Shown here: piece by piece, positions 9,136 through 49,283 of the stretch
Layout of the letters: each line of letters begins with the position of its first letter
How positions within the stretch are numbered: the stretch's first letter is position 1
Assembly: GCA_029939575.1 (NCBI GenBank)
Contig: JAOZSR010000007.1
Span: 2,092 to 66,091, forward strand
Reading direction: 5' to 3'
DNA from: Fidelibacterota bacterium
Lineage (GTDB): Bacteria; Fidelibacterota; UBA2242; JAOZSR01
Length of the DNA: 64,000 nucleotides
Notes under the pieces: generated by a model
The model's input: only the letters and a program-made list of their open reading frames with translations
Database searches by the model: none
What the model was told of the DNA's origin: nothing
Program-made: the position numbers and the translations under genes

Positions 9136-9162
9136 AATAAATTCTTCTTATCGCCTAATTAA

Positions 9163-10248: not shown

Positions 10249-10416
10249 TTTTCTTTCTAAAAATAATATTTAATTAAACTGTATTCAGTTTGGTATCAAT
10301 AATAGTAACATTCCAGTCTTCAAACTCTTTATAATTAAATTTATCAACATGTTTGAAAGCAAGATTTATCGAAAAATCACTATAATATTCATTATATTGG
10401 TAAACATTTCCTGGTT

Positions 10417-19400: not shown

Positions 19401-20130
19401 AAGGCAAAATTACTTCACACCATGACCAGCAATATGTTATAACTATTTTATTTTTATTAATTCCTAAAACATCACAGGCTTTTTCACGAGATAAATTCGG
19501 ATCATAGGCAATTGGAATAGGTATTCCTAAAGGTAAAATTTCCTGTGATTTATCTAAAAATTCATTCCAAACATCCTTTTCCATTTGATTATTCATACAA
19601 ATGTAATCAGAATTAAAATTTGGATATGGAAATTTTCCTGGTTTCCAAATTTCTTTATCAGGACGAATATTTGAATCATATCCATGTGATATATTTAAGG
19701 TTGGTATTCCATTCTTTTTTGCTTCCAGAACAAAAGGAGCCCGTTCACCCGAATAGTCAGCACTAGTGATAAATAAATCAATTTTATTCTCTTTAATGTA
19801 TTCTTTAAACATTTCTAATTTTACAAATATTCTAAAAACCGTCTCAGAGATATGTTTAACATCCTGCTTTTCAAGAGGTTCTACAGTTTTTGTTTCCAGA
19901 ATTTTTTGCAAATTATTCTCTGTAAATCTCAATAATCTATAAACATTATCACTGTATTCCGGAAGAATTGTATTGATATTTATATTGACAACATCTTCTA
20001 TAAATGATATTCTGGTATTATTTCCAAAATTTTCATTTTTATAAGTTATAACATTATATCGCTGACATAACTCTGATAATAATTCACTATGTCTAATACC
20101 AAATAATCCAGTAACAAAAATATTTTTCAC
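10417..20130 (-). CDS. giant 3237-aa multidomain protein, N- to C-terminus: unknown domain, GT2, GT9-like, GT2, GT4, Zn-ribbon + class I SAM methyltransferase, TPR block, GT9-like, GT2, TPR block
   Basis: Uninterrupted 9.7 kb ORF in AT-rich DNA. GT2 motifs occur three times: VSIVIPLYNN...DNGSKDNT...FLNNDTE (around nt 18760), VSIIIPLFNK...NNASNDET...FLNNDTE (around 16975) and ISIVLTLYNN...DDASKDST...FLNNDTE (around 11765). The GT9-like motif IYVHMGGIGDACLLLSSFYD occurs twice (around 17855 and 12610). GT4 motif: HPYRGEGFGLPILEAMSCG. The methyltransferase has CPFCNSG...CVDCNS followed by LDIGCCWGG. TPR-like repeats: AAAYNMVGIINFEEGDLEKAIQSF... Confidence 0.8.
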   Translation of the reverse strand: MKNIFVTGLFGIRHSELLSELCQRYNVITYKNENFGNNTRISFIEDVVNININTILPEYSDNVYRLLRFTENNLQKILETKTVEPLEKQDVKHISETVFRIFVKLEMFKEYIKENKIDLFITSADYSGERAPFVLEAKKNGIPTLNISHGYDSNIRPDKEIWKPGKFPYPNFNSDYICMNNQMEKDVWNEFLDKSQEILPLGIPIPIAYDPNLSREKACDVLGINKNKIVITYCWSWCEVILPSKVQFDFMEQAEHNKQILLKIFQLPNISEVELIFKMHPIFDQFSDTYIGIQNYVKKLASKNNINQNMVFTIDKNPEVLAVTDLLVSPHFSSIIWEALIAGVPCTIVPYPYLYEMFSKEKITQCNHLTREGIINFNRDADELFNFLKTNSTNSRITELRSRIKEKKQKNGIDFRPNQEKCIAICNWIDNFFVEKDSKNIVAKPNNFPVKKSESGIPKVSIVIPLYNNVKFTRQCVNSIFQNTKYPNYEIILVDNGSKDNTRQYVKEMEKAHANIRGVYNDDNLRFARGCNAGAKFAKNKYICFLNNDTEVQENWMTVGINRLKSDENIGIVGAKLLYPNGTVQHCGLDLFQNISTIYSVWPAHRLRGTSPDNPKINKVEEFPVVTGACVFMETDFFNQIGCWDEAYGMYFEDSDLCFKVKAAGKKVIYDPKCVLIHHEAQSNPNQAEIDRLNMEAASRFYLKWEKEVAVIAIKKLIEKIDGKFVYLSGNIEPKNLLEAKKYLKPVTHHIASIFRELGPIYVHMGGIGDACLLLSSFYDADPEQVILSIPNSISTMKKFFSSFPKLKNVFFLPMPKNNISHNIYRQIFHQISNVKGLGATPKDNYIEEWLNTFDVFTKYNLNQKCEWINLFKTQKIVDFQVIINPQGSMKGMMNGKKNIINPLYWEKIVATLNDENIKPIIIGIPEERDIYYKTGEMIDKRSYDLYEQMQLVASADLVIGADTWAKSFSALGEIPTIVFESLRPAKYKNWKDPAESIFIDPWKSITKVTNFENFKKLLLKILPSIQNGQQSVENNRVLDRKEYLKNIIDNYYTQVSIIIPLFNKCEYTKKCVQAIFDNTLYPNYEIIFINNASNDETREYIDELNSNFENIQVIHNEKNKYFAAANNQGVEISKGEVLVFLNNDTEVQTGWLHNLLKIHKREKNAGVIGAKLIYQNRKIQHAGIELLKLIKPKNIKGYGEIRWVPDHPNRNIAENDSAVSYQRDLDMVTGACLLISKKLFNEIGGFDEIYINGCEDIDLCLKIREMGKRVIYTPDSIVIHYEGKSDGRFDNVEKNLTIFIKRWYEYFDNFLKYRSKIERELLSVSEQQSKSDINVIWEGSQFVYHSLALVNREQTLRIINGGFNVSVLPYEKDQFIPGKKSPFRKIKQRVNRKLAKVDVHVRHQWPPNLTAPEKGHWVIIQPWEFGYLPKNWVKVFSRDVDEFWVPSNYVKKIYLDSGVPSDRVFVIPNGIDYEKFNPNVPPYQLKTKKKFKFLFLGGTIYRKGIDILLESYKKQFSSKDDVCLVIKDMGGDSFYRGKNNKAEIRKIQQDHSLPEIEYIDKYLDEPSLIGLYTACNCLVHPYRGEGFGLPILEAMSCGISPIVTRGGACLDFCNDENSIFIDARKVKYKDTKIGEEELVNNPWLFEPSIEDLAKKMHFAYKNPENIKKIGQIASKYAKEEFSWDNSSAILQNRILQLTKKPIVRFNNQEKKNENLISEYDSLDEIQENYQKIKCPFCNSGKSKVIRNSNDIVQCVDCNSIYLRTRLTREAMEKLYQSYGDVDSHKPPDSVADIPKHSQFRKNFMNEILEFTKPEGKFLDIGCCWGGLLYNARQKGFDVQGIEVTRKNVEYAKNVLNINVSNIQFDQQDFNENSLNVVTMSHVFEHIPYTLVALKKINNILKPGGMFCGAVPNFGSFMSLFLKDQWFLLDPAYHYVHFYIDILKRELHRYGFKIEKIYTITGDYSDSNLNKTINAMFDINNDTDIHSIVELIEKEGFGEEIRFYARKEKHIKTTPKIDDLENDFEEEKLMFEIYSKIKNKLAGKTILPNFEDFESIYQDCEKFTDAGEYKKAFEKIKHLLTDFPFYTKAIILASNIHLLNNDNKAAYNLLEKSEKFSPACIKISRKLAEIDIVENKYEEAFNRLIKLNKSFPNDITTIVMIIELLLENDRFDDAFLYLKKAIIVDSDNIEIQNLIQHFISNTGSTKNIDSTPDILFEKVLKAKESGDIVACKEYLENILNIAPDYAAAYNMVGIINFEEGDLEKAIQSFSQAIENDHDLLDAKRNLAEVMLSKGDYEKGINIFDEILGEHPNDVLVLNRMGQLYFEVGKKDMAIKFINKVLEVEPDNKDALELLEILEKTDNINDIETSKQVPLKANEENAIDILENMISEEIDKKENSKTKDSKSVIEDIKQQLQLATKTGDSSKLLELVNQIAKISPEQASLQNLKPLIKFHPKYFTSDKCKLIKEIKGNAIFLSEIIEPNNFDFVEEYTDIFVHYLASIFESIGHIYVHMGGIGDACLLLSSFYDQEPEQIVLCIPNNINVMEQFFNCFPKLKKIFFLPYPVNLKFHGIYRQILTQIKNVKGLGATPRNTYLEEWTSDLNVFKKYGLTEKCNWVNNFKTEKITDFQVVINPKGSLKGMVEGKKNIIDPKFWHRIINFLNGQNIVPVIIGIPTEEDDYPIFGKVINKRSYNIFEQMQIVATADVLIGADTWGKSFSALGNIPTIVFESVRPKKHANWKDPAEYIFIDPWDSITKVKNVNEFRNRMQELLVNRDSVKSKKKPANNKTKISIVLTLYNNLGFTKKCIESIKRNTKYPNYEIVLVDDASKDSTWEYLKYLEQENDNVIITHLEENQKFAGGSNRGAEIASSEYLVFLNNDTEVEKNWLTSLFQVFQKNENTGIVGAKLLYPDRRVQHAGVEFVKLDEPIQIKNYGQIDYLMEHPNRYADENSPAINQVKEFDMVTGACLLIPTELFFNVGKFDEKYQMGVEDIDLCLKVRDKGYKILYNPDSVIIHHEAVSDDRFKYFNENLELFFKRWGNRFDEKWNFIPNEANISKENMILTNSPDNQSVTNDINKSEAVKSTGLNENELFDKILDSREKEDNVETIKLIETLLQIEPNHAGAFNILGIISYEQQELDNAIAMFQKSSELDPQFLDAQRNLAEVFIAKGEYEKGVHTFDHILENFPDDVLTLTRLAQLFMEVENFVNAKSFVTKILEIKPNDETALEMMEMIDENI

Positions 20131-20143
20131 AACACCCTCGATG

Positions 20144-20872
20144 TTATAATTTATTCACAATTAGCTGAGAAATAATAAACCGATAATCCTGTTTTAGAAA
20201 ATTGACAAAATACGGAATATCATTGGTATTTTTCTTATCAAGTATATAATCATAGAAAACTTCAACTTTACTATCAATATCTTTCATTTTATCAAATTCA
20301 GTCTGCATTATTTTCTTAAGTTGATCTTTCATAGATTCATAATTAAATGAGATTTTTGCAAGGCAATGTGGACATAATTTTTCTATATCAACAAGATAAT
20401 CCAATTTAATAATCTGATCGAGTTCCTGATCGCAAGCCTTACATGTACATTTTAAATTCATATGTACAACACCATATGGAAGAGAAATTTTTAAATCGGA
20501 TATATTAATACCATATATTTTATCCTGACCTGTAGCATGAAATTTTTTCACCCATTTAGAAATCATTCCTTTTTTATTACCAGATATATTATTTTTTATA
20601 TCTTTGTTGCCAGTCTCAAGAAATACTCTGAGTAAATAACTATTCAATTTTGGGTCATCTTTATCCAAATTACTTTTAATTTTATTATAAAAGTTTATAG
20701 ATTCTGTAATTTTTCCTAATAGAAGCAAACTATAAACAATCTCCTTATGAAAATCTAAATTACTTGTATGATTTTGTATTATTGAATTAGCATATTTTAT
20801 CGCCTCTTCTGATTTTCCGGCAATATTTAATTGTTGCATTTTCTTTACTGGAGATTCAACGTTTTCTTTCAT
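20144..20872 (-). CDS. hypothetical protein with Cys-rich zinc-ribbon-like segment (CTCKAC...CPHC)
   Basis: 242 aa, helical N-terminus, with CxCxxC...CxxC in the middle. Its stop lies 14 nt upstream of the giant gene start, so the two look co-transcribed. Confidence 0.4.
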   Translation of the reverse strand: MKENVESPVKKMQQLNIAGKSEEAIKYANSIIQNHTSNLDFHKEIVYSLLLLGKITESINFYNKIKSNLDKDDPKLNSYLLRVFLETGNKDIKNNISGNKKGMISKWVKKFHATGQDKIYGINISDLKISLPYGVVHMNLKCTCKACDQELDQIIKLDYLVDIEKLCPHCLAKISFNYESMKDQLKKIMQTEFDKMKDIDSKVEVFYDYILDKKNTNDIPYFVNFLKQDYRFIISQLIVNKL

Positions 20873-20984: not shown

Positions 20985-22193
20985 TTATTTACCTACTTTT
21001 GCAGCTATATCTGTTTTGGCAATTATTTCTTTTAAATCTAAATCAGAGGGAGGTTCTTGCTCCCATAATGGATTTTTCAATTTCCAATCTCCATTATCAT
21101 CCAGTTCCCACATATCACCTCTAAAAGAATTTGTGACATCCCAAAATTCTTTTTCGCTGATATCAATATATTCACAAAAGTTTTTAATATATTTATTCCC
21201 ACATTTTCCATCAAAAGTTTTAATAAGTGCTATACCTTCGGCTCTTGATATCAACCCATAACGGATATCATAATTAACATGATCTGTAGCCTGACCAAAA
21301 CCAAATTTTACATGTTTCATCATCTGATTTACTTCTAACAAATCTCCACTACCATCCAATTGTGAATACCTGTTATAAGTACCTAAATTATCAAGATTTC
21401 TATCTTTTGATCTTATTGTAAGTCCATTTTTTAATGAAAAGAGTAAATTATGTTGAAATGAATATTCTTTTACATAATAATTCATCCAGATCCCTCTTAT
21501 ATCCATTTCCCTCAATTTATTAGCATCATAGTGAAATAAAAACATATCATCTTCTTCTACTAATCCTTCTTTAATAAATGGCTCAATTCCTTCTATTAAT
21601 GTATTATGTTTATTAGCAATTAGCGCATCATCACCAGTACCTAACTCAGATTTGCTATCACCAAATGTTAATCCAACATTTTCACCCTGTATGATTAATG
21701 GAATATCAAATTTTTGTGCTATAATATAGGTTACAGCATAAAGAACATATTCAGTGGTTCTACCTGGGTTAAGATTATCATAGAAGTCACGTTTAATTAA
21801 TTTTTTTTGAACTATTGAATTCGCTCGTAAAGCAATAGTATCAAATCCAAGATTTTTTAAGTTCTCAATATTTTTCAAACCAATTTCAGAAATATTTCCA
21901 GGTTCGCAGTTTACAAGTAATGGTCTTAATCCCAGTACATCCCTGGCATAAAGGGCCTGAAAGGTACTATCCTTTCCGCCACTGACACCAATAGCACATT
22001 CATATGGTGTTCCACGTTTTTTAGCTTTTCTTTTAGTTTCAACAACAATTTCATTTAATTCTTTCTGCCGCTGATTCCAATCAATGGTGGTCTCCATTTT
22101 TTCTTTCCATAAACATCCACCGCATACTCCTTCTTCATTAAAATATATATTTGGTCTTGTATCAGGCTGAACACACTTTGTGCAATATTTCAT
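20985..22193 (-). CDS. N-acetyl-sugar amidotransferase (PP-loop ATPase; PseA/WbpG family)
   Basis: N-terminal CTKCVQPDTRPNIYFNEEGVCGGC zinc ribbon followed by the SGGKDS PP-loop. This layout is typical of flagellin-modification PseA and LPS WbpG amidotransferases. Confidence 0.75.
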   Translation of the reverse strand: MKYCTKCVQPDTRPNIYFNEEGVCGGCLWKEKMETTIDWNQRQKELNEIVVETKRKAKKRGTPYECAIGVSGGKDSTFQALYARDVLGLRPLLVNCEPGNISEIGLKNIENLKNLGFDTIALRANSIVQKKLIKRDFYDNLNPGRTTEYVLYAVTYIIAQKFDIPLIIQGENVGLTFGDSKSELGTGDDALIANKHNTLIEGIEPFIKEGLVEEDDMFLFHYDANKLREMDIRGIWMNYYVKEYSFQHNLLFSLKNGLTIRSKDRNLDNLGTYNRYSQLDGSGDLLEVNQMMKHVKFGFGQATDHVNYDIRYGLISRAEGIALIKTFDGKCGNKYIKNFCEYIDISEKEFWDVTNSFRGDMWELDDNGDWKLKNPLWEQEPPSDLDLKEIIAKTDIAAKVGK

Positions 22194-22214
22194 CTATTCC
22201 TTCTCCCTAAAATT

Positions 22215-22781
22215 TTATTTAATTTTTAGAAAATCTTCTTTTAAAAGTCCCATTTGGATTACATCAACATATTCACCATTTCTATAATGATGATTTCTGA
22301 AAACTCCTTCAACTTTCCAACCAAGTCGCTCATGAAGTTCTGGTAAGCCCGGAATTTCTGTACCACCGTATAAACGATTAAGATTTAATTTGTTAAACGC
22401 ATATTTCATTAATATTTTTAGTACTTCAAAATAATGCATAACCCTGTATTCCGGAATTCCAATCATTCCATTTAATGTAGCATTTCGATTAACCCAATCG
22501 ATTTTATCAATGCTAAAATTCCCAAAATGTTTGCCAGTTGTTTTGCAACATGCAGCAAAAACAATATGGTTAGGACTTTTAACATTCTCAAAAAAATTAT
22601 CCAGATCTTTTTCTGTAGTAGGCCAACGTCGGAAATGATCAGAATAAATTGTCAGATCAGGATTATTTAACCAGGATAAATATTCAGGGCGAATATCTTC
22701 TTTTAATAAAGGGCGTAAATAAGTGATTTTCCCTTCGAGAAAAGTATACTGATTTTTTACTTTTTGTTTACTGTCTTCCAT
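22215..22781 (-). CDS. GNAT-family N-acetyltransferase (PseH/LegH-like candidate)
   Basis: 188 aa; sits next to nonulosonate pathway genes; C-terminal segment looks like a GNAT acyl-CoA-binding fold. Called from context plus general shape, so confidence is moderate. Confidence 0.55.
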   Translation of the reverse strand: MEDSKQKVKNQYTFLEGKITYLRPLLKEDIRPEYLSWLNNPDLTIYSDHFRRWPTTEKDLDNFFENVKSPNHIVFAACCKTTGKHFGNFSIDKIDWVNRNATLNGMIGIPEYRVMHYFEVLKILMKYAFNKLNLNRLYGGTEIPGLPELHERLGWKVEGVFRNHHYRNGEYVDVIQMGLLKEDFLKIK

Positions 22782-22810
22782 AATGATTGTTCCAAAAATT
22801 ATTAATTTTA

Positions 22811-23878
22811 TTAAACTTTAAAATTATTGATTGATTGTTTATACTGTTCCCATTGACCGACATCTATCCAAGATTTATCCGATACAGGGAAAACTCCGAC
22901 ATTTATATTATTTTCTTTAATTTTGTTAACTAAACTTACCATATCAAAAGGTTCGTTTTCAGGGATATATTTTAAAACACTCGCATTAATGAGATACATG
23001 CCGGTATTTACTAAAAAATCGAATTCCGGTTTTTCATATATCGTTTTTAATGATCCTTGATTTTCATGAGTACAGACTCCATAGGGTATTGTAAATTGCT
23101 TCATTGAAGTCACAATTGTCAAATCAAAGCCATTATCTTTATGAAAATTATATATTGCATCATAATCGGTTTTCACAATAATATCACAATTTGACATAAA
23201 AAATGGTCCGTTTATGACACCATCAATCAATTTTAATGCACCTGCGCTTCCCAACGGCTTATTTTCTTCAATATATTTTATAGAATAATCAACATCTTCA
23301 TTATCAAAATATGCCTTGATCATTTTATCTTTATAAAAAACAGATAAATAAAAATCTTTCATTCCAAAATTTGCATATTCATCCATTATTATCTCAATAA
23401 TTGGTTTTTCTCCTATTGGGATGAGTGCTTTTGGTAATATTCTGGTAAATGGATCGAGTCTGGTCCCTTTCCCTCCTGCCATAATTACAACCGGTAAATC
23501 AAGATTAGATTCATTTTTTACTTTTTTACCTTTAATAATTTTAATATCATCTTTGTTAATAATATTTATTAATTTGCCATCATCAAGTACCGGAAGTAAT
23601 TCAACACCACTACCTTTATTAAAAAACTTTTCCAGATTAGATTTGGAATAATTCTTACTAATACATTGAAAATGTTTATTAGCAATTTGCATGATGTTTT
23701 GATTTAAAGCAACTCCGGACAACACAGCACGACGAAAATCACCATCAGTTACAATTCCCACAACTTTATGATTATCATCAATGATTACAATAAATCCAAA
23801 TCCGGCATTATCCATTTGCTTGATACCATCACGAATGTTGGAATTCATACTAACCTGAAATTCCCCAATATCTATCAT
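22811..23878 (-). CDS. CBS-domain sugar-phosphate nucleotidyltransferase (PtmE-like)
   Basis: N-terminal tandem CBS-like segments (VVGIVTDGDFRRAV). They are followed by the nucleotidyltransferase motif VVIMAGGKGTRLDPFTRILPKALIPIG. This architecture matches the Campylobacter legionaminic-acid GDP-sugar enzyme PtmE. Confidence 0.7.
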   Translation of the reverse strand: MIDIGEFQVSMNSNIRDGIKQMDNAGFGFIVIIDDNHKVVGIVTDGDFRRAVLSGVALNQNIMQIANKHFQCISKNYSKSNLEKFFNKGSGVELLPVLDDGKLINIINKDDIKIIKGKKVKNESNLDLPVVIMAGGKGTRLDPFTRILPKALIPIGEKPIIEIIMDEYANFGMKDFYLSVFYKDKMIKAYFDNEDVDYSIKYIEENKPLGSAGALKLIDGVINGPFFMSNCDIIVKTDYDAIYNFHKDNGFDLTIVTSMKQFTIPYGVCTHENQGSLKTIYEKPEFDFLVNTGMYLINASVLKYIPENEPFDMVSLVNKIKENNINVGVFPVSDKSWIDVGQWEQYKQSINNFKV

Positions 23879-24963
23879 AATGATTCCTGCAAATTAATTA
23901 CTCTATGAAATAAATCAATAAAATTTGATATTGAATTTAAATTCTGTTTTCTTACTTTCATTTTCCTTTGTTGCTTAATTAGTCTCTTAAGTATAGGTAA
24001 AATATCACTTTCTTTAGTAACAAGAAATATGCCATCTCGTCTGTCGATATTATCAATTCGAATTTTTTTATTAGGTTGAATACTTAATACCTGACTCCCC
24101 AATAACATTGCTTCATATAGCAAAACAGAATACAAACCTACAACTAATCTTGATTGATATACTAATTTCCAGGAGTTTGTATCTGCTTTGGAGATAAATA
24201 TTTCAATTTTATTTTTATAATAATCAATAATTTCATGTATTTTTTTAGAAATAAATCCTCTCGGATGTGGTTTATAAATAATTGAATATTGCTGATTATA
24301 TTCCTTATTTAATTGAATAATATTTTTTATTGTTAATTCAAAAACTTCAATTTCTGTAAATCCCAGGGTTTTCTTTTCATCTTCACCCATTATTGGATTA
24401 AAAGGATCTCCAACAAAAAGTATTTGCCCCTTATTATAATTACTTTGCATATTTCTATTATTATCCAGAAAATTATTTATCTTATCATAAAGCGGGCTAC
24501 CGGTAATCACTATTTTTTCCTGTGGACATCCCTCCTCTATCATACTATCTGCCATTATTTTATCAATAACTGCTACATAATCTGGTAATAAATTATAATG
24601 TTTCCCGGAATCAGGTTTTAATGTAAATCGTTGCCAGTAATTTACCCATGTATCAACAAATCCAATTGATGGGATATTATGCTCTTGAGCCCATTTCCAA
24701 AACAACCCATCATCAGCTACATTATCAGAGGTTCCGGAAAAAACAACTAAGGGATTAATCTCTTCAAGAATATTTACAACATCATAGAAATTAGTGTATT
24801 GAAAAAAATTATACCCCTCTTTTTTCCAATAATCAGCGGCATGGGATGCTGCGAAAAGAAATGGTGAAAATCCGGCCTTAATCAAAGAATCTATTATCGA
24901 CGAAATAAGTCGGGCTGAGCCGATTTGTCTAACAATGATTGCAATTGGTTTATTCATCATCAA
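23875..24963 (-). CDS. hypothetical GT-B-like protein (possible PseG/NeuC/LegG-type hydrolase or TagF-like transferase)
   Basis: 362 aa. The alternating beta-alpha character and the KPHPRG motif suggest a Rossmann-like GT-B or TagF-like fold. No definitive motif seen. Overlaps neighbouring genes by 4 and 14 nt. Confidence 0.3.
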   Translation of the reverse strand: MMMNKPIAIIVRQIGSARLISSIIDSLIKAGFSPFLFAASHAADYWKKEGYNFFQYTNFYDVVNILEEINPLVVFSGTSDNVADDGLFWKWAQEHNIPSIGFVDTWVNYWQRFTLKPDSGKHYNLLPDYVAVIDKIMADSMIEEGCPQEKIVITGSPLYDKINNFLDNNRNMQSNYNKGQILFVGDPFNPIMGEDEKKTLGFTEIEVFELTIKNIIQLNKEYNQQYSIIYKPHPRGFISKKIHEIIDYYKNKIEIFISKADTNSWKLVYQSRLVVGLYSVLLYEAMLLGSQVLSIQPNKKIRIDNIDRRDGIFLVTKESDILPILKRLIKQQRKMKVRKQNLNSISNFIDLFHRVINLQESL

Positions 24964-26317
24964 TAATATTGTCTATAGCTTGAGCAGGATCCATAAATCC
25001 GGTTTCAGAATCACCTCCTAATTTTTCCTGTATTTGTGTGCTATTTTCAATTACTTTTATTATTGCATTGACAAAATCCTGCATATCATTAATAGTCAAA
25101 GGTTCTCTGACTAAAGGTGATATAATCATTTCTTCTTCATAAAGTTTTTCTACTACCGGGCAGAGACCTTTTTCATACTTATAATCAATATCATTGTAGG
25201 TAAAAGGAAATCCTTTTTTACCAATAGCAATTTGTTGTTGATATATTTTTTCCAGATACAATGGTTTTACATAAGCTTCAGCCAGAGGTGTTGTTTCCCA
25301 TATCCTAGGTTTAGGTAATTCAGCTGCAACCGATCTAACAAATAAATTTCGGGATAAACCAATTATTTCAGCATTGTATCTAATTGGAAACATATAATAA
25401 GCATGAGTCATATCATTTTTTAATTTCTGAACAGTAAGCCCATCTATATTCTCTAATCTTTCTGTAACATATTTTGCTAACTTTTGGCGATGTTTTAAAA
25501 TTTTATCAAGTTTTTGAAATTGTACTGTTGCGATGGTAGCGAGTAATTCTGTAAATCTAAAATTTCCACCAATAACATTTGCAAGGGTATCAAGTTCATA
25601 CATATCTACGGCATTTTCACCATGATTACGAATTAATTGGCAACGATGAGCTAAATCATCATTTTCGGTAACAAGTAATCCTCCTTCGCCTGTGTGAATA
25701 TGTTTATGATAGTTTAGGCTGAATCCTCCAATATCACCGATTGTTCCAACAGGTTTTCCTTTATAAAAAACACCTGGTGCCTGAGCAGCATCCTCTATTA
25801 CTTTTATTCCCAAAGGTTTGGTGATCTTTAATATTTCATCCATATCCGCCGGATGACCAAAAAGATGAACAACAACAACTGCTTTAGTACGTTCTGTAAT
25901 TCTTTCCTTTATAGATTTTGGGTCAATGCAGTAATTTTCAGGATCAATATCTGCAAATATTGGTATTCCACCATAAAACATTGCCGCAGTTGCGGATGCA
26001 GACATCGTATAGGGTGGACAAATCACCTCATCACCAGGCTCTATTCCGACAGCGCCAAAAGCAACCTGTAAACCGGCAGTCCATGAACTCACTGAAATCG
26101 CATGTTTAAAACCATATTTCTCTGCCCATGTATTTTCAAACTTACGAACTTCCGGACCACCTAGGAATAATTTGCCTGCTGCACCAAGAAAACCGGACAA
26201 ATTTCCCGTTTTTATAACTTTGGTTGCTGCATCAATTTCCGCCTGCCCCATAGTAATTCGATCAGGAAATTCTTCAGTTCTTAATGGATTGCCACCTAAT
26301 ATTGCAGGTAAACTCAT
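24950..26317 (-). CDS. DegT/DnrJ/EryC1-family PLP-dependent sugar aminotransferase (long form)
   Basis: FENTWAEKYGFKHAISVSSWTAGLQVAF...IEDAAQAPG...GDIGGFSLNYHKHI (the PLP lysine region) is typical of PseC/LegC-type aminotransferases. Confidence 0.75.
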   Translation of the reverse strand: MSLPAILGGNPLRTEEFPDRITMGQAEIDAATKVIKTGNLSGFLGAAGKLFLGGPEVRKFENTWAEKYGFKHAISVSSWTAGLQVAFGAVGIEPGDEVICPPYTMSASATAAMFYGGIPIFADIDPENYCIDPKSIKERITERTKAVVVVHLFGHPADMDEILKITKPLGIKVIEDAAQAPGVFYKGKPVGTIGDIGGFSLNYHKHIHTGEGGLLVTENDDLAHRCQLIRNHGENAVDMYELDTLANVIGGNFRFTELLATIATVQFQKLDKILKHRQKLAKYVTERLENIDGLTVQKLKNDMTHAYYMFPIRYNAEIIGLSRNLFVRSVAAELPKPRIWETTPLAEAYVKPLYLEKIYQQQIAIGKKGFPFTYNDIDYKYEKGLCPVVEKLYEEEMIISPLVREPLTINDMQDFVNAIIKVIENSTQIQEKLGGDSETGFMDPAQAIDNIIDDE

Positions 26318-26376
26318 AACTGCTCCTTTATAATTTCAATTTTTTTTACTTTACCGTACTTAAATAATTTTCGGAT

Positions 26377-27348
26377 TTATATTTTTGCTTTGGATTGAAT
26401 TTTATTCGTTATATTATTACATACTTCTAAAGTTTTTAAATCATCAGTAATTGGGCAAATAATTTTTTCTTTTCCCTTTAAAAAATTATAAACATGATCG
26501 GCTGTATGGTATAGGGAATTAGTTAATTGTGTACGAATTTCAGTCGTTTTTTTCAAAGAATGATAGTCTGTAAATATTTTATCACGAATCGATTGCTGAA
26601 ATTCTATAAAGAATCCCGATTCTGTAATCCGAACACGGCCTTTTTCAAAAAAGAAGTCAATTTCAAAAATTCCATAAACTTTACAATCTATATGATTTAA
26701 GTAAAATAAAGTCCCATTCTGAAATTTCAATATTCCTGATACTGATGGATCATCCTGAAAAAAATCATATTTAAAGTCAGTAATTTCTATATTGTTAATT
26801 TCACCGATATAATATCTTAATAAATCAATCATATGAGAGCCATTATGCAAAATACCTTTTCCGTAATAGCCGGTTCCAGCGAGATAATTTCCGAGTTCAT
26901 TGTTAATTTTATTCTTCAGTTCGATATATTCCGGAACGAATCTTCTTCGATAATTGACTAAAGCAGGAATATTTTTATCATAATAATGTTTTATAACTTC
27001 CTTGGATTTTGCAAAACTTTGGGTCAGAGGTTTTTCCGCAATTACAAATTTAATCGGTAATTCTGCAATCTTCATAAGAATATCATAATGATATTCCGTA
27101 GATGCTGCTACAACCACAACATCAATTTTATGATTTGAAAACGCTGTTTCAAAACAAGTAAAATATTGTGTTTGCCAGCGTTCTGCTGCCTTTCTGGCTT
27201 GCTTTTCATTGGTATCTACAAAACCTATAAGATTAAAATGAGCATGTTTACAAAAAGCATGGGCGTGAGTAATAACATGTTCGTCTTCAGGATGGTCATA
27301 AAAAGCACCGATATTTCCGGCACCTATGATTAAAACATTATATTTCAA
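26377..27348 (-). CDS. Gfo/Idh/MocA-family NAD(P)-dependent oxidoreductase
   Basis: N-terminal Rossmann VLIIGAGNIGAFY followed by EKPL, characteristic of Gfo/Idh/MocA sugar dehydrogenases. Confidence 0.7.
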   Translation of the reverse strand: MKYNVLIIGAGNIGAFYDHPEDEHVITHAHAFCKHAHFNLIGFVDTNEKQARKAAERWQTQYFTCFETAFSNHKIDVVVVAASTEYHYDILMKIAELPIKFVIAEKPLTQSFAKSKEVIKHYYDKNIPALVNYRRRFVPEYIELKNKINNELGNYLAGTGYYGKGILHNGSHMIDLLRYYIGEINNIEITDFKYDFFQDDPSVSGILKFQNGTLFYLNHIDCKVYGIFEIDFFFEKGRVRITESGFFIEFQQSIRDKIFTDYHSLKKTTEIRTQLTNSLYHTADHVYNFLKGKEKIICPITDDLKTLEVCNNITNKIQSKAKI

Positions 27349-27359
27349 TATGTTGCGCC

Positions 27360-28067
27360 TTATTTTTCGTTTTGTTTCATTAAAAATACTGCTTTGGCAA
27401 ATTTCAAATCATCATAATCATCGATATCAACAGCAGATTCCCATGGAATTGGAAAAAATTTATGTTTTGGGCCATAAAAGCTACCGGCCTTTTTTAGTTG
27501 ATCAACCTTTGCAATCCAAATTGCACCTGTTGGACAATAAAGGTCTTCCAAATCCTGAGATCTTGTAAAAACTCCTCCAGGAAAAATAAAATCAGGCTGA
27601 TTATCTTTTTTCAACTTAGCAGCCCACCATGGATTCATCCACCCAAACTTGAAACAGGAAAGTTGAAAATCATTATGTCGATTTTTAAAATTATCTAAGG
27701 CTGCTAAAATATCTGACGTTCCTCTGATTGGTGTATTTGCCATTAACTGGACAACAATGTCGTAGCTTTCATGCCAATAATTTTCTGCTTGTGAAACACA
27801 ATGGATTGTGGCAGCACTAACCGGAGTAATGTCATCATTGTATTTATCACGTAGAAAAGGAGTATCATTATTGAATTTTTTAGCCGTATTAATTATTTTC
27901 TGATTATCAGTACTGACAACAATCCGATCAAAAACATTTGCATCCTGAGCTGCTTGTATCGTCCAGGCAATCATAGGTTTGCCCATAAAATCAATTATAT
28001 TTTTATAGGGTATACGTTTAGAACCGCCTCTTGCTGGAATAACAGCAATAATTTTTGGTTTATTCAT
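27360..28067 (-). CDS. acylneuraminate cytidylyltransferase family (CMP-nonulosonate synthetase; NeuA/PseF/LegF-like)
   Basis: N-terminal AVIPARGGSKRIPYKNI is the signature of CMP-NeuAc-synthetase-family enzymes. Confidence 0.85.
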   Translation of the reverse strand: MNKPKIIAVIPARGGSKRIPYKNIIDFMGKPMIAWTIQAAQDANVFDRIVVSTDNQKIINTAKKFNNDTPFLRDKYNDDITPVSAATIHCVSQAENYWHESYDIVVQLMANTPIRGTSDILAALDNFKNRHNDFQLSCFKFGWMNPWWAAKLKKDNQPDFIFPGGVFTRSQDLEDLYCPTGAIWIAKVDQLKKAGSFYGPKHKFFPIPWESAVDIDDYDDLKFAKAVFLMKQNEK

Positions 28068-28079
28068 GTAAACACCCAG

Positions 28080-29153
28080 TTATTTTATATCTTCCCACAT
28101 TATCAATTCGTCATCCTGTATATCATGATTTACTGTTCGTCCAATTAAGTATTCTACTTCATTTGGCTGCACTCCTCGCCCAGGTCTTTTAAAATCCAAA
28201 TCTTCCCTTCTCAGGATTGTTCCTTTTTTTATTTGCCCATTAGCAACGACACTCCTTCTAAATGCTTTTCTTTGCTCCATTTCTTCCTCAGAAACCCTGC
28301 GTTGATAAGATCCTTTTGCTGCTATAATACGGCGGCCTTCATTAATAATAACATTCATATCAGATTCATCAGCAGATACAGCATGATCCCAACCTGCCAT
28401 TTTTTTATCAAGAGTGAAATGTTTTTCAATAACAACTGCTCCCATAGCAATTGCAGCGAGAGGAATTGAATATCCAATTGAATGATCTGAAAAGCCAACC
28501 GGTACATCAAAAGTATCGTTTAAAGTAATCATATTATTTAAATTTATCATCTCATCCTTAGGTGGATAAATTGATACACAGTGCAATAAAATTACTTCTT
28601 CATTACCATTTTTATATATTGTATTTAATGCACGGTCAATTTCTGCCAGTGTTCCCATTCCCGTAGACAATATTATAGTTCGATTCTTTTTTGCAACGTA
28701 GGCCAAAAGATCGGGATTATTTAAATCCATTGATGCAATTTTAAAAAATGGTACATCCAACTTTTCCAGCATATCAACTTCTTCATAAGAAAAGACAGAC
28801 GAACAAAAAGAAATACTATTTTCATCACAATGATTTTTTAATTCTATATGGTCAGATTCTGAAAGAGAAAATTTTTCTACCATCTGTTCCAGTGTTCCGA
28901 ATTGTTTATCGACAAACTGACTTTTTTCTTTATAAAAATGTTTATTAAATAGTGTATTTTTTGTCCATGACTGAAATTTGGCCGCATCACAATTTAGTCC
29001 TGACAAAGATTCAATCATTTTTTTTGCTAACTCCATATTACCATTATGATTAGCGCCAATATCAGCTATTACATAGGGATAATCATTTTCCATAAACTTA
29101 TTAAAAAAATCAGTCGACATATTTCCTCCATTCCGAATAGGGTAAGATTTCAC
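28080..29153 (-). CDS. nonulosonic acid synthase (NeuB/PseI/LegI family) with C-terminal SAF domain
   Basis: YVIADIGANHNGNMELAKKMIE..., FSDHSIGYSIPLAAIAMGAVVIEKHFTLDK and the C-terminal SAF-like tail are typical of NeuB-family PEP-condensing synthases. Confidence 0.85.
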   Translation of the reverse strand: MKSYPIRNGGNMSTDFFNKFMENDYPYVIADIGANHNGNMELAKKMIESLSGLNCDAAKFQSWTKNTLFNKHFYKEKSQFVDKQFGTLEQMVEKFSLSESDHIELKNHCDENSISFCSSVFSYEEVDMLEKLDVPFFKIASMDLNNPDLLAYVAKKNRTIILSTGMGTLAEIDRALNTIYKNGNEEVILLHCVSIYPPKDEMINLNNMITLNDTFDVPVGFSDHSIGYSIPLAAIAMGAVVIEKHFTLDKKMAGWDHAVSADESDMNVIINEGRRIIAAKGSYQRRVSEEEMEQRKAFRRSVVANGQIKKGTILRREDLDFKRPGRGVQPNEVEYLIGRTVNHDIQDDELIMWEDIK

Positions 29154-30012
29154 TCCACCATCCTTTATATATTTTTTGAAAATTATTATTGATTATTTGT
29201 TTATATTTCATCAAAAAATTTGAATCTTTACAACGATCATCTAAATCAATAATTTCATTGAATTTTTTAGTATATAATAATTGCATCTCTTTTTGCGTAC
29301 AATTTTTCACTAAATATGAAAAATGTAAAAGTTTTGTCTTTATTCCCATTTTTAATTTGTCATTACTTAAATTCTGACTTATACCTACAGTGTTATCTCC
29401 AGTCTGTCTATAGTATGTTTTGCCATCACATTTCTGACCCACTGCACCAGTTGCTAGCAGTTGGGTAAATATCCACCAATCAATAGCAATAACGTCAGAA
29501 GGAATTTTAATATTGCGTAATTTTTCAACATTTACAGCAGTATTACTCAATCCAAACAAATTGTAGTCCGTAATATCCATAACTGAACTATATTTTTTTT
29601 CATAATTTATAGATAAAGAGGAGTCAATCTCATTACCGCCTTTATCAACAGGAACTAAATCGTTATATACAAAATCGGATTGTTGTAATAAATTTATACT
29701 ATTAATAATCCTATCTTTTGAAAAAAAATCATCTGCATCAGAAAAAACCAGTTTCTCAAATTTATGTTTAATAGCAAAATCTAAAATATCCTGTCGTAAT
29801 TCTGCTTTACTGTGATTCTGCTGGTTTTTTAAAATATGAATATTAAAATAATCTTTAGGCAATTTTAAATCATCGATCCCATCATAGATTACCAGGAGAT
29901 CAAATTTGTTTTCAGTTTGATGTATTAATGAATCAAAATAATCTCTTAAGAAAGGAATGACCTTGGGAAAGACAACTACTGAAATTAGCGTATTATGCCT
30001 TTTTATTTCCAA
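29110..30012 (-). CDS. hypothetical protein (possible GT-A-like fold)
   Basis: 300 aa with no clear motif. Within the operon its 3' end overlaps the NeuB-like start by 44 nt, so the true start or stop may differ. Confidence 0.3.
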   Translation of the reverse strand: MEIKRHNTLISVVVFPKVIPFLRDYFDSLIHQTENKFDLLVIYDGIDDLKLPKDYFNIHILKNQQNHSKAELRQDILDFAIKHKFEKLVFSDADDFFSKDRIINSINLLQQSDFVYNDLVPVDKGGNEIDSSLSINYEKKYSSVMDITDYNLFGLSNTAVNVEKLRNIKIPSDVIAIDWWIFTQLLATGAVGQKCDGKTYYRQTGDNTVGISQNLSNDKLKMGIKTKLLHFSYLVKNCTQKEMQLLYTKKFNEIIDLDDRCKDSNFLMKYKQIINNNFQKIYKGWWSEILPYSEWRKYVD

Positions 30013-30014
30013 AT

Positions 30015-30692
30015 TTACTGACCTTTATTGTTTGAATAAATAAAAACATGATTCCCTTTACGAATAAAAGCTCCGGGTTTCCCCGGATAAGTTACAGCTC
30101 TGATACGTCGATTTATTTCATTTTCATCCATCCTACAAGTGATTTCACAAAGACTATTTAATTCATTTCGGGTATAGGGACGCCTTTGCCATTTTTCTCC
30201 ACAAAAATGTAAATTTTGTCCTGAAAAAATTTTATCAACTATTATTTTAAAAGAGTCAAATATTTTGTCATAACATTTTTGAGTTACAGAATATACAGAA
30301 TCATATTTATCTATTTTGAACCTTATTACATCGATAATTCGCCCGGTATCCACTTTATCTTCCATTATATGAGATGTAATTCCGTATATAGGTTCTTCGT
30401 TATATAATGCAAAATTTACACAACCGATTCCCGGATATTCAGGGGGACCGGTATGAAAATTAATTGCCCAATCACGAGTATTATTTAGTAGTTTAGCAGG
30501 AATAATCCATGGTGACAGATATGAAATAAGTAAATCACATTTATATTTAACATCTAAAACAGGAAATGGATCTTTTGTATCACCAATGAACACATCAATA
30601 TTATCAGTATATTTTTTTAAATAATCTATTGCTTCCGTGAGATGCGGGCGTTCTTTGGCAAATAGAGCAACTTTTTTTTTATTTCTGACCAT
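30015..30692 (-). CDS. formyltransferase-domain protein (sugar N-formyltransferase candidate)
   Basis: WAINFHTGPPEYPGIGCVNFALYNEE resembles the Fmt/PurN formyl-transferase catalytic core (HxSLLPkyrG). The tetrahydrofolate-binding fold is typical of sugar N-formyltransferases. Confidence 0.65.
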   Translation of the reverse strand: MVRNKKKVALFAKERPHLTEAIDYLKKYTDNIDVFIGDTKDPFPVLDVKYKCDLLISYLSPWIIPAKLLNNTRDWAINFHTGPPEYPGIGCVNFALYNEEPIYGITSHIMEDKVDTGRIIDVIRFKIDKYDSVYSVTQKCYDKIFDSFKIIVDKIFSGQNLHFCGEKWQRRPYTRNELNSLCEITCRMDENEINRRIRAVTYPGKPGAFIRKGNHVFIYSNNKGQ

Positions 30693-31845
30693 TTTTCAAA
30701 ACTCCAATGACATATTCTTGCTGCTCCTGACTTAAATTTACACTTGCTGGAATATTCAAAGTCCTTTCAACCAATTGATAACACCTCTCCAGTTTATATG
30801 TTTGATAATTATTATAAGGTTTCTGCAAATGATTGAGAAACCAAATAGGTCTGCTCTGAATTTTTTCACTTTCTAAATAAGACATAAGTTCATCTCGGTC
30901 TTTCCCGTAAACTTTTGCATCAATTTGTAAACAATACATCCAATAATTGGATTCTGCATATTCAGGAGTATCACTTAGTTTTACTCCTCTTGTTAATTTT
31001 ATAGCCTGTTTATATTTCAGATAATTAGTTTTTTTTATTTTCAAATACTCCGGTAATTTCTCCAGTTGGCCAACTCCCATAGCAGCCTGGATATTTGTAA
31101 GACGGTAATTATATCCAATTTCATGGTGAATATATTTTACAGGATCATCTTTGGCCTGAGTTGTTAAATAACGCACCTTATTTGCATATTTCTGATTATC
31201 AGTCAGGATCATACCACCACCACCACAGGTGATAATTTTATTCCCGTTAAAAGAAAGACATCCTAAATCTCCAAGAGTTCCAGTGTGTTTTCCTTTATAT
31301 TTGCCATCGGTATAAGATGTACCCAAACTTTCACTGGCATCTTCAATAATTTTAATATTCCGCTTTTTACACAAGTCGATCAGATCATCTAAATAACAGG
31401 CATTACCAAAAATATGAACCGGAATAATTGCAGAAATTCTTTTATTTGTTTTTTTATTATAAGTAAAACCATTTTTAAAAATAGTTGCTTCTCTGATGAA
31501 CTCAATTGTCTTTTCTACATCAATATTATAATAATCATCTGCATCCATAAATATAGGATCTGCATTGCAATATTTAACTACATTAATTGGTGATATAAAA
31601 GTAATTGTCGGAACAATAACCTCATCATCAGGTTTTACTCCGGCTACAATTAAAGCAATATGCAAAGCAGCTGTACCATTTACAACAGCAATAGCATATT
31701 TTGCACCAGTATATTCTGCTATTTTTTCTTCAAATAAATCAACATATTTTCCGGCTGAAGAGACCCACTCTGTGTCAAGACACTCATTAATATATTTCTT
31801 TTCATTTCCTTGAATACTCGGTACTGACAAAGGAATAAATTCCAT
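30679..31845 (-). CDS. DegT/DnrJ/EryC1-family PLP-dependent sugar aminotransferase (second copy)
   Basis: EKIAEYTGAKYAIAVVNGTAALHIAL...IIEDASESLG...GDLGCLSFNGNKIIT is the classic aminotransferase layout with its lysine region. Confidence 0.75.
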   Translation of the reverse strand: MEFIPLSVPSIQGNEKKYINECLDTEWVSSAGKYVDLFEEKIAEYTGAKYAIAVVNGTAALHIALIVAGVKPDDEVIVPTITFISPINVVKYCNADPIFMDADDYYNIDVEKTIEFIREATIFKNGFTYNKKTNKRISAIIPVHIFGNACYLDDLIDLCKKRNIKIIEDASESLGTSYTDGKYKGKHTGTLGDLGCLSFNGNKIITCGGGGMILTDNQKYANKVRYLTTQAKDDPVKYIHHEIGYNYRLTNIQAAMGVGQLEKLPEYLKIKKTNYLKYKQAIKLTRGVKLSDTPEYAESNYWMYCLQIDAKVYGKDRDELMSYLESEKIQSRPIWFLNHLQKPYNNYQTYKLERCYQLVERTLNIPASVNLSQEQQEYVIGVLKNGQK

Positions 31846-31857: not shown

Positions 31858-32850
31858 TTAAAGTGTTTGATAAAGTTGTAGAATTTTATCTGCAATTTGT
31901 GGAGATGTTAATCCATACTTTTCTAACAAATCGTTGTATTCTCCTGATTTTCCATAAAGATCCGGATGTCCCAGGATTAGCTGCGGAGGTGAATTTTTCA
32001 ATGTAGATTTGTATTCTGCTATTGCGCTTCCCAAACCACCGATAATATTATGTTCTTCTATAGATACAATCAGATTAGTTCCTTCACAGGCGTTTTTAAT
32101 TGCCATCGTATCCAAAGGTTTAATTGTATGCATATTTACAACACAAGCAGATATTCCCTTTTCCAATAATAAATTAGAAGTTTGTAGGGCTTCATAAACC
32201 ATAGTTCCACAAGCGAATATTGTGATATCTTTTCCATTTTTCAGGATATTTGCTTTTCCAATTTCAAAATCATAATCATCTTCATAAACCATTGGATTTG
32301 GAGTTCCACCAGTTAATCGAATATAGATAGGTCCTTTATGTTTCATAGATGCAATAGTAGCTTTTACAGTTTCCCCACTATCGGCAGGAGAAATTACCGT
32401 CATACCGGGAATTGCCCGCATTATGGCAATATCTTCAATACTGCAATGAGTATATCCAAGTGTGCCAAGTACAATACCGGCAGATAAACCAACCATACAA
32501 ACATCATTGTTCATATACCCAAGATTTACCTTGATTTGTTCACAACAGCGCATGGTTTGAAAAGGTGCAAAAGTCGAAGTTATTACCTTATGCCCCTCAC
32601 TTGCCAGACCTGCTGCTATCCCCATCATATTTTGTTCTGCAATACCAACATCCAGATATTTTTCAGGATGGGTTTTACGAAACCTATCCAACCCTGCAGA
32701 AGTGGAAACATCAGCTGTCAAAATCATGAGGTTTTCCATTGTTTTACCTAATTCAACTGCAGTTAATCCAAATGCAGCTCTGGAGCCTATTCTTGACCAA
32801 ATTTTCATTGTCGCTTTATTTATTTTCATGATTTTTATTCCTAATCCCAA
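31858..32850 (-). CDS. transketolase, C-terminal (pyrimidine-binding) subunit of a split transketolase
   Basis: IAEQNMMGIAAGLASEGHKVITSTFAPF and the C-terminal domain are typical of TktB-type small subunits. Confidence 0.8.
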   Translation of the reverse strand: MGLGIKIMKINKATMKIWSRIGSRAAFGLTAVELGKTMENLMILTADVSTSAGLDRFRKTHPEKYLDVGIAEQNMMGIAAGLASEGHKVITSTFAPFQTMRCCEQIKVNLGYMNNDVCMVGLSAGIVLGTLGYTHCSIEDIAIMRAIPGMTVISPADSGETVKATIASMKHKGPIYIRLTGGTPNPMVYEDDYDFEIGKANILKNGKDITIFACGTMVYEALQTSNLLLEKGISACVVNMHTIKPLDTMAIKNACEGTNLIVSIEEHNIIGGLGSAIAEYKSTLKNSPPQLILGHPDLYGKSGEYNDLLEKYGLTSPQIADKILQLYQTL

Positions 32851-35488: not shown

Positions 35489-35522
35489 TATTAATAACTC
35501 CTAATAATTTATTTGTATTATA

Positions 35523-35999: not shown

Positions 36000-36013
36000 A
36001 ATAAATCCATTTT

Positions 36014-39685: not shown

Positions 39686-39727
39686 TCCATTTGGTTAAAT
39701 CTTCAAAATTTTAATTATTTCATGGAG

Positions 39728-42267: not shown

Positions 42268-42295
42268 AATTTCACCTATATCAATTAATTATAAC

Positions 42296-43624: not shown

Positions 43625-43635
43625 AATTTTCCTTA

Positions 43636-49276: not shown

Positions 49277-49283
49277 AATTCCC

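Follow-up and report, generated by a model that had tools for sequence, protein, structure and literature searches.

Nonulosonic acids (NulOs) occur on flagella and surfaces, where they control motility, recognition by phages and immune evasion. Their chemical diversity is still being mapped. In this study, we analyzed a stretch of 64,000 nucleotides from a Fidelibacterota bacterium (NCBI GenBank assembly GCA_029939575.1, contig JAOZSR010000007.1, positions 2,092 to 66,091 of the forward strand), which is called the window below and has a G+C content of about 31%. The genes at 20985-31845 of the window had been read, in a preliminary description made from the letters alone, as a pathway for a legionaminic acid (Leg) or pseudaminic acid (Pse) type of sugar. 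The product of this cluster is probably a sialic-acid-like sugar that is N-formylated and amidinated. The cluster type is already known, and the new element is the replacement of three enzymes of the Leg route. Because these three textbook enzymes (LegB, LegH and LegG) appear to be replaced by unrelated ones, the sugar may be neither Leg nor Pse.

The closest described system is the flagellin Leg locus of Campylobacter jejuni and C. coli, with LegB, LegC, LegH, LegG, LegI and LegF as well as PtmA, PtmE, PtmF, PtmG and PtmH. The window is similar to this locus in its flagellar context, its LegC family member, its PtmE-, PtmF- and PtmA-like proteins, its PtmG-like amidotransferase, its NeuB-family synthase and its cytidine monophosphate (CMP)-sugar synthetase. 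However, the window has a Cj1427-like short-chain dehydrogenase/reductase (SDR) for LegB, a formyltransferase in the LegH slot, and a GT-A-fold protein plus a distant Epimerase_2-like protein for LegG, and its synthase is below the NeuB/LegI cut-off. In addition, the window has no Maf protein, and it has an extra aminotransferase, an acyl module and a phosphonate module.

Formylated NulOs have been described in two other systems. Formylated CMP-NulOs were measured in the anammox bacterium Candidatus (Ca.) Kuenenia and were linked to a leg cluster with a formyltransferase (preprint 10.64898/2026.04.20.719630). The leg-type cluster of the anammox Ca. Kuenenia/Brocadia group (L015; L numbers denote related loci) resembles the window in a formyltransferase of about 220 aa (47% identity) directly after the LegC-family gene, a CBS-nucleotidyltransferase, a CMP-transferase and a radical SAM gene. 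However, it includes canonical LegB (508 bits), NeuB (516 bits) and NeuC/LegG (405 bits) and a PIG-L deacetylase, has neither an amidotransferase nor a GT-A partner, and lies in a non-flagellar context. The second system is Halorubrum sp. PV6, which makes 5-N-formyl-legionaminic acid, has a leg cluster with a predicted formyltransferase, and carries the N-formylated sugar on its glycoproteins (PMC6137143). It differs from the window in being archaeal, in N-glycosylation and in canonical LegB, LegC, LegG, LegH, LegI and LegF; furthermore, its formyl group is reported at N5, whereas N7 is predicted for the window. Given these two precedents, an N-formyl group is well supported for the window but not new in kind.

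A Leg route built in another way is known from the Bacillus subtilis sps genes, which differ from the C. jejuni scheme in enzymes and nucleotide carrier (PMC7439481). SpsE is among the nearest solved relatives of the window synthase. However, the sps route is UDP-linked, uses the SpsM dehydratase and SpsG, serves spore crust decoration and lacks both a formyltransferase and an amidotransferase.

Candidate replacements in the Leg route

The genes on which the comparison is based are as follows, all on the minus strand (bits are given against family cut-offs where these exist).

20985-22193 (-): N-acetyl-sugar amidotransferase (NASAT; WbuX/WbpG/PseA/PtmG family), TIGR03573 312 against 203
22215-22781 (-): GNAT N-acetyltransferase, Acetyltransf_3 36 bits; PseH 35.7 against 93
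22811-23878 (-): PtmE-like CBS plus sugar-1-phosphate nucleotidyltransferase, 355 aa, Pfam CBS and NTP_transferase
23875-24963 (-): 362-aa GT-B-like protein, distant relative of UDP-GlcNAc 2-epimerase, Epimerase_2 35 bits
24950-26317 (-): second DegT aminotransferase (DegT2), 455 aa, DegT 282 bits
26377-27348 (-): PtmF-like Gfo/Idh/MocA oxidoreductase, 323 aa, GFO_IDH_MocA 62 bits
27360-28067 (-): CMP-nonulosonate synthetase (cytidylyltransferase), CTP_transf_3 89 bits; PseF 167 against 205.7
28080-29120 (-): NeuB-family nonulosonate synthase of a clade apart from NeuB/LegI and PseI, NeuB plus SAF 265 bits
29110-30012 (-): GT-A-fold protein, 300 aa, putative nucleoside diphosphate (NDP)-sugar hydrolase in place of LegG/PseG, from AlphaFold2 (AF2)/Foldseek and position
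30015-30692 (-): putative short sugar N-formyltransferase, 225 aa, Formyl_trans_N 39 against 26
30679-31845 (-): LegC-family 4-aminotransferase, TIGR04181 480 against 420
33676-34506 (-): FabG/PtmA-like classical SDR, adh_short_C2 180 bits
39989-40966 (-): extended SDR of 6VO6 type, putative NDP-sugar C4-dehydrogenase in the LegB role, best PDB match 6VO6/6VO8

The open reading frames (ORFs) named in the preliminary description are all present on the minus strand and have strong family matches, and the best profile matches in the region reach E=4e-144. Two more ORFs inside 20985-31845 had been missed, namely 23875-24963 (362 aa) and 29110-30012 (300 aa). The Leg-like early chemistry was borne out by LegC above its cut-off and by the PtmE-, PtmF- and PtmA-like proteins. 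However, the description had also seen a near-complete Leg/Pse route, and no orthologue of LegB, LegH, LegG, PseB, PseG or PseH reaches its family cut-off. Judged by sequence families, the locus is not a canonical Leg pathway, since LegB, LegH and LegG are all lacking, and it agrees with none of the Pse families.

The first replacement concerns LegB. The SDR at 39989-40966 had been offered as a 4,6-dehydratase, a role that its sequence does not support. It is the only extended SDR of the island and scores 83 bits on the LegB model (TIGR04180) against a cut-off of 475, whereas the SDRs of L003, L012, L013, L015 and L016 score 466-513 bits. Among PDB entries, 6VO6/6VO8 matched it with 190 bits at about 40% identity, and all others gave <=96 bits. 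In the alignment, the window SDR has STCSNYG where the LegB-family proteins of L003, L012 and L013 have STSEVYG, and the catalytic Glu of the dehydratases is absent. This Glu acts as the dehydration base in 4,6-dehydratases such as RmlB and GMD, which have Asp-Glu and Ser-Glu, respectively, at this site. The homologues in L001, L006, L007 and L011 read STCSIYG, STCSNYG or SSCSVYG. The YxxxK motif is present as YAKLK. With YxxxK retained, the dehydratase acid/base missing and 6VO6 as the closest structure, the protein has the sequence features of a Cj1427-type C4-dehydrogenase.

6VO6/6VO8 is presumably C. jejuni Cj1427. Cj1427, like the window SDR, is without the dehydratase Glu; it oxidizes GDP-heptose at C4 without dehydration and requires alpha-ketoglutarate for turnover (PMC10680097). 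In C. jejuni HS:5, its 4-keto product passes to a C3-dehydratase that depends on pyridoxal phosphate (PLP) and requires glutamate (PMC10680097). However, the substrate of Cj1427 is a heptose, whereas that of the window SDR is presumably an NDP-N-acetylhexosamine (NDP-HexNAc).

Locus L001, from a Marinimicrobia metagenome-assembled genome (MAG), has an SDR homologue with 68% identity directly before its LegC-family gene. Immediately upstream of this homologue, at 1-260 of L001, we found a LegB-type N-terminal remnant (MKKILVTGASGFIGSHL...NSWG, followed by the stop codon that interrupts it). A legB remnant beside this SDR and LegC is the signature of LegB displacement by the SDR. On these grounds the window pathway would start with C4 oxidation without 6-deoxygenation, and because the SDR is without dehydratase residues, the sugar may keep its C9 hydroxyl.

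A somewhat unlikely explanation is that the product is an ordinary 9-deoxy Leg with decorations (e.g. Leg5Am7Fo), either because the family of this SDR is an unusual 4,6-dehydratase or because a LegB/PglF-type dehydratase lies outside the window. Unexpected dehydratase chemistry in this family and a dehydratase outside the window are both real alternatives. LegC above its cut-off and the PtmE-, PtmF- and PtmA-like genes agree with an ordinary Leg, close relatives of the GT-A/NeuB module use bona fide LegB (466-512 bits), and the window covers only 64 kb of the genome. Nevertheless, the SDR has Cys-Ser where the LegB-family proteins have Ser-Glu, its best solved relative is the presumed Cj1427, a C4 oxidizer without dehydration, and the decayed legB beside the L001 SDR, directly before LegC, indicates replacement. 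If the product is plain Leg5Am7Fo, the locus is one more flagellar island for a decorated Leg.

The second replacement concerns LegH, and it lies next to the LegC-family gene. The LegC-family protein of the window is 67% identical to that of L005 and 43% identical to that of L001, and both of these are also above the NCBI cut-off. No Hexapep/PglD_N protein, as expected for LegH, was found among the island ORFs scanned. In L001, L003, L012 and L013, the LegC-like aminotransferase and the GT-A/NeuB pair have a PglD-like hexapeptide acetyltransferase between them; this acetyltransferase is directly 3' of the aminotransferase in L003, L012 and L013, and phosphonate genes intervene in L001. In the window, the 225-aa formyltransferase occupies this slot. 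Homologues with 46-47% identity directly follow LegB- and LegC-family genes in Ca. Brocadia (L015) and Dissulfurispira thermophila (L016), and tblastn found no homologue of the formyltransferase or of the 362-aa protein in L001-L013.

The formyltransferase family includes more than 1200 homologues of about 220 aa. The window member aligned over about 175 residues with the solved sugar N-formyltransferases 5VYT (GDP-perosamine formyltransferase), 4NV1, 6NBP and WlaRD. Both GDP-perosamine and dTDP-Qui4N formyltransferases are among the enzymes aligned, and the alignment with the short PseJ is weak. The Asn-His-Asp catalytic triad of the Formyl_trans_N core is present, with N78-F-H80 at the NxH of the solved enzymes and D115 at their Asp. 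None of N78, H80 and D115 varies among 15 homologues with 45-55% identity to the window protein. Thus, 30015-30692 very likely encodes a real sugar N-formyltransferase. The conserved position after LegC suggests an N10-formyl-tetrahydrofolate donor and the amine made by LegC as the acceptor. In a NeuB-type condensation, the hexose 4-amino nitrogen becomes N7 of the nonulosonate. Since the gene position points to the hexose 4-amino group, the formyl group is predicted at N7. The N-formyl substituent, already proposed in the preliminary description, is strengthened by the invariant triad, by the acetyltransferase slot and by the homologues after LegC in Ca. Brocadia and Dissulfurispira.

It is distinctly unlikely that the 225-aa protein instead acts on another amine (e.g. 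that made by DegT2) or depends on some other one-carbon or acyl donor. Its N-terminus is about 30 residues shorter than those of the solved sugar formyltransferases aligned, and the cluster has a second aminotransferase, both of which would suit such a role. However, the catalytic triad is invariant, the adjacency to LegC is conserved across phyla, the gene takes the position of the acetyltransferase, and the solved short formyltransferase PseJ has a comparable length.

The third replacement concerns LegG. No island ORF matched the LegG model (NeuC, TIGR03568) in NCBIfam. The 300-aa protein at 29110-30012 was modeled by AF2 from an alignment of 19 sequences with a pLDDT of 92, and its best Foldseek matches are GT2 enzymes. 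Its D92xD94D95 (DxDD) motif is invariant in the family. A homologue of about 300 aa adjoins the synthase gene in all of L001, L003, L005-L013 and L016, none of which has an intact NeuC/LegG, and in all of these loci except L010 the GT-A gene is directly upstream of NeuB and often overlaps it. The sources of these loci are Marinimicrobia, Bacteroidales/Bacteroidia, Atribacterota, Planctomycetia, Delta- and Alphaproteobacteria MAGs, an Asgard archaeon, the cultured bacterium Dissulfurispira thermophila and further contigs. A profile search of genome contigs with the GT-A alignment gave 7 loci, and the genome of the window itself was not among them. Given this position and the absence of LegG, it is plausible that the GT-A protein removes the nucleotide for this synthase clade.

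The synthase also stands apart. It scored 343 on TIGR03569 (NeuB/LegI; cut-off 399.65) and 270 on TIGR03586 (PseI; cut-off 340), and the PDB matches are PseI (8H2C) with 172 bits, SpsE with 148 and NmNeuB with 147, which are about equal distances. The ORF was called at 28080-29153. However, nearly all of 120 listed homologues have 335-353 aa and the closest listed ones 345-346 aa, so the start is probably Met12, which gives 28080-29120 and 346 aa. The clade is large and mostly metagenomic. A NeuB of about 340 bits occurs together with the GT-A protein in L016, L012 and the window, whereas the Brocadia cluster combines its canonical NeuB and NeuC with no GT-A partner. These results suggest that a widespread clade of synthases relies on a GT-A-fold partner rather than on LegG/PseG, and that a C4-dehydrogenase takes the place of the dehydratase in a subset of related loci. 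If these replacements hold, additional enzymes would become available for the chemoenzymatic preparation of diamino sialic acid analogues with N-formyl and perhaps 9-hydroxy groups, and the annotations 'Leg' and 'Pse' would be seen to mislabel a sizeable group of environmental clusters. In addition, a second, very divergent NeuB paralogue was observed in L003 (11852-12850) and L012 (11852-12850); it has 332 aa, about 25% identity to the window NeuB and 134 bits on TIGR03569, and lies between the CMP-transferase and the CBS-nucleotidyltransferase.

The preliminary description had also leaned toward Leg in the choice between Leg and Pse. Neither the synthase nor the CMP-transferase reaches any equivalog cut-off, and the sugar may have the configuration of Leg, of Pse or of another stereoisomer. 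A pseudaminic-type route, in which PseH, PseG, PseI, PseF and PseA would be the GNAT, the 362-aa protein, the synthase, the cytidylyltransferase and the amidotransferase, respectively, is highly unlikely. Among solved structures, a pseudaminic acid synthase is indeed closest to the synthase (172 bits for 8H2C and about 147 for NeuB/SpsE), the best NCBIfam match of the cytidylyltransferase is PseF, and the GNAT matches PseH weakly. However, PseI (270/340), PseF (167/206), PseH (36/93), PseC (224 and 202/423.5) and PseB (48/408) are all below cut-off and PseG gave no match, the NeuB/LegI model gives the synthase more bits (343) than the PseI model does (270), the aminotransferase is above the LegC cut-off, and the relatives of the module carry LegB, not PseB.

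The amidotransferase at 20985-22193 includes an intact PP-loop (SGGKDS) and an intact tetracysteine motif, C4xxC7...GxC24xxC27 (CTKC...GVCGGC), and its profile score is above the NASAT cut-off. It also matched the Legionella pneumophila NASAT 8WEX with 114 bits. The motifs of NASAT proteins are SGGXDS and CXXCXn[GN]XCXXC (PMC10607449). It is expected to convert an N-acetyl to an acetamidino group. The earlier reading as a PseA-type amidotransferase stands as to family, with profile score and both motifs all as in NASAT proteins, but the label is better given as PtmG/NASAT-type; the Leg-specific paralogue in C. jejuni is PtmG and not PseA.

The proposed route and its flagellar setting

The functional unit is far larger than 20985-31845. 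From 45845 down to 5665, all sizeable ORFs are on the minus strand, the junctions between them are short or overlapping, and this single-strand glycosylation island of about 41 kb sits between two flagellar gene blocks.

1358-4643 (+): fliC (284-aa flagellin), fliS, fliD and flaG, left island border
46228-51343 (-): csrA, fliW, flgL, flgK, flgN, rod-binding protein and flgI, right island border

Sugar biosynthesis and glycosyltransferase genes are embedded between the flagellin gene and the hook-associated genes. With flagellar genes on both sides, we take the island to serve flagellar glycosylation, and its position supports the link to flagellin. The resemblance to flagellin loci seen in the preliminary description is borne out by the gene order from fliC/S/D/flaG to csrA/fliW/flgL/flgK, within which the CMP-nonulosonate genes stand. 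It was also observed that csrA (77 aa, 46228-46461 on the minus strand) is directly downstream of fliW at the island border, which is a FliW-CsrA pair for control of flagellin translation. The promoter-like sites (94 versus 86±7 in shuffles) and the terminator-like sites (6 versus 5.5) are at chance, so these scans carry no information on operon structure.

We consider it fairly likely that this flagellar island has a core that makes a CMP-activated 5,7-diamino nonulosonate by a non-canonical Leg-like route. The function of each step is taken from homology, motifs or gene position. First, the PtmE-like nucleotidyltransferase, possibly with the Gfo/DegT2/GNAT triad and the PtmA-like SDR, would supply an NDP-HexNAc. 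The 6VO6/Cj1427-like SDR (39989-40966) would oxidize C4, and the LegC-family aminotransferase would install the 4-amine. The short formyltransferase would then formylate this amine, the later N7, with N10-formyl-tetrahydrofolate. The nucleotide would be removed by the GT-A-fold protein and/or the 362-aa GT-B-like protein, the divergent NeuB would join the free sugar with phosphoenolpyruvate, and the cytidylyltransferase would yield the CMP-sugar. NASAT would turn the N-acetyl into an acetamidino group. Finally, the TPR (tetratricopeptide repeat)-containing glycosyltransferases encoded downstream would place the glycan on flagellin. The structure that we favour for this sugar is a 5-acetamidino(or acetamido)-7-formamido nonulosonate.

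A more specific and rather doubtful possibility is an undescribed nonulosonate that is neither Leg nor Pse, namely a 5,7-diamino-3,5,7-trideoxy sugar with 7-N-formyl and 5-acetamidino groups that would keep its C9 hydroxyl because a Cj1427-like C4-dehydrogenase stands in for the 4,6-dehydratase, and in which a GT-A-fold NDP-sugar hydrolase would take over from LegG/PseG and supply a co-evolved NeuB clade. For such a sugar, a third acetamido group might come from the Gfo/DegT2/GNAT triad, and the C9 hydroxyl, being free, could carry the phosphonate of the adjacent module. It is less likely that an SDR with the heptose specificity of Cj1427 leads to a ten-carbon ulosonic acid.

Several observations weigh against the Leg-like route to a flagellin glycan. 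The synthase, the CMP-transferase, the GNAT and DegT2 are all below every equivalog cut-off. The SDR is 8 kb from LegC in the window with the acyl module in between, and the genome may encode a true 4,6-dehydratase beyond these 64 kb. The GT-A protein could be an ordinary glycosyltransferase, since what points to a hydrolase is only its position and the absence of LegG. Furthermore, no Maf-type flagellin nonulosonate transferase (MAF_flag10) was found among the ORFs and giant-protein segments scanned, and for the full-length 3237-aa protein of the island this negative covers the best 25 of 42 Pfam families. Finally, the related NulO clusters L003, L012 and L013 are in capsule- or O-antigen-like contexts, so the NulO module itself is not flagella-specific.

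The last two points would suit an island, or a NulO part of it, that decorates a surface polysaccharide or another protein and lies among flagellar genes by coincidence, which we consider unlikely. Homologous NulO modules do lie beside Wzx/Wzy, ABC-transporter and capsule genes, and the 284-aa flagellin is short, its variable region being small. However, no Wzx, Wzy, Wzz or ABC exporter genes were found among the island ORFs scanned, fliC/S/D/flaG and csrA/fliW/flgL/K flank the island tightly, and the island has soluble glycosyltransferase-TPR proteins. Known flagellin glycosyltransferases such as FlmG are built in this way.

Precursor supply and neighbouring modules

Most of the remaining core genes may serve precursor supply. 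The 355-aa CBS-nucleotidyltransferase has 48-53% identity to homologues in L001, L003 and L006 and 42% to that in L008, and its size and architecture are as in the PtmE listed for C. jejuni (PMC4481668). The Gfo/Idh/MocA protein (323 aa) is comparable to PtmF, an 'oxidoreductase' of 326 aa in the same C. jejuni locus (PMC4481668). The true start of the FabG/PtmA-like SDR is probably internal because alignments begin near residue 30, and L003 and L013 have similar SDRs next to their GT-A/NeuB pairs. DegT2 has its PLP lysine in the motif NYHKHIHTGEGG, and its nearest structures include inosose and Kdo8N transaminases, whose substrates are not nucleotide-linked.

In the Planctomycetia locus L008, the Gfo/Idh/MocA, DegT2 and GNAT genes are in the same order as in the window; the DegT2 homologue (47% identity) follows the Gfo gene, and the GNAT homologue (35% identity) follows these two. 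L013 has an SDR and a DegT gene after NeuB. The triad looks like a unit that would oxidize, transaminate and acetylate. It could supply an amino-sugar precursor, as the counterpart of the PtmF/PtmA segment of C. jejuni (PMC4481668), or add a third nitrogen. Synthesis of a 3-amino sugar for the NulO by these three enzymes was considered and rejected, because the hexose O3 becomes the ring oxygen of the nonulosonate.

The 362-aa protein belongs to a family with about 2600 representatives (E<=0.001) and an invariant H233-P234. The family profile matched 4NEQ (UDP-GlcNAc 2-epimerase) with E=3e-6 and, marginally, KpsC/SiaD (polysialyltransferase) with E~0.05. The single protein had no match in NCBIfam and none in the PDB by phmmer, and its single-sequence AlphaFold model (pLDDT 42) was unusable. 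It could be an NDP-sugar hydrolase/epimerase or an ulosonic-acid (nonulosonate) transferase.

Three further modules make up the rest of the island.

5665-20872 (-): glycosyltransferase block with two GT2-TPR proteins, a cNMP (cyclic nucleotide)-binding protein, a GT4, a 3237-aa protein and a 242-aa ORF without Pfam match
31858-39967 (-): inserted acyl/ketol module with split transketolase, radical SAM/SPASM, FabZ-like, LuxC, LuxE, AMP-ligase and carrier-protein-like ORFs
40969-45845 (-): phosphonate module with a cytidylyltransferase-PEP mutase fusion, a sulfatase-family protein, an Fe-ADH and a phosphonopyruvate decarboxylase

In the glycosyltransferase block, a single ORF at 10417-20130 (-) encodes the 3237-aa protein with three GT2 domains, a GT4, a SAM-methyltransferase and two TPR blocks. 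It has an internal repeat of about 300 aa without Pfam match, in which ...HMGGIGDACLLLSSFYD... occurs twice. This protein is a candidate for a multi-step flagellin glycan assembly enzyme. Next to it, 5665-10248 (-) encodes the two GT2-TPR proteins, the GT4 and a 331-aa protein with a cyclic-nucleotide-binding domain, and regulation of flagellin glycosylation by cyclic nucleotides is possible.

The PEP mutase fusion and the decarboxylase of the phosphonate module are above their cut-offs (TIGR02320 409 against 320; TIGR03297 384 against 312), and the Fe-ADH is PsrA-like but below cut-off. The trio of PEP mutase, decarboxylase and Fe-ADH is also beside the NulO clusters in L001 (3124-6734) and L012 (1-3000). 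Its presence beside NulO clusters of two further assemblies suggests that the glycan is decorated with a phosphonate. Genes resembling MpnS or HEPD were not seen.

The acyl/ketol module also contains the FabG/PtmA-like SDR, and it separates the Cj1427-like SDR from LegC, which are neighbours in L001. The carrier-protein-like ORF at 39728-39967 (-) encodes 79 aa with a DSVGH motif and has no Pfam match. The module may build an unusual N-acyl or ketol substituent. A link of its radical SAM protein to that of the Brocadia cluster was dropped, as the identity was 24% over 123 residues.

Outside the island, two adjacent DUF3857 proteins unrelated to the NulO finding are encoded at 55384-59201 (+). 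One of them has a transglutaminase-like core domain, and the other has a clear DUF3858 domain.

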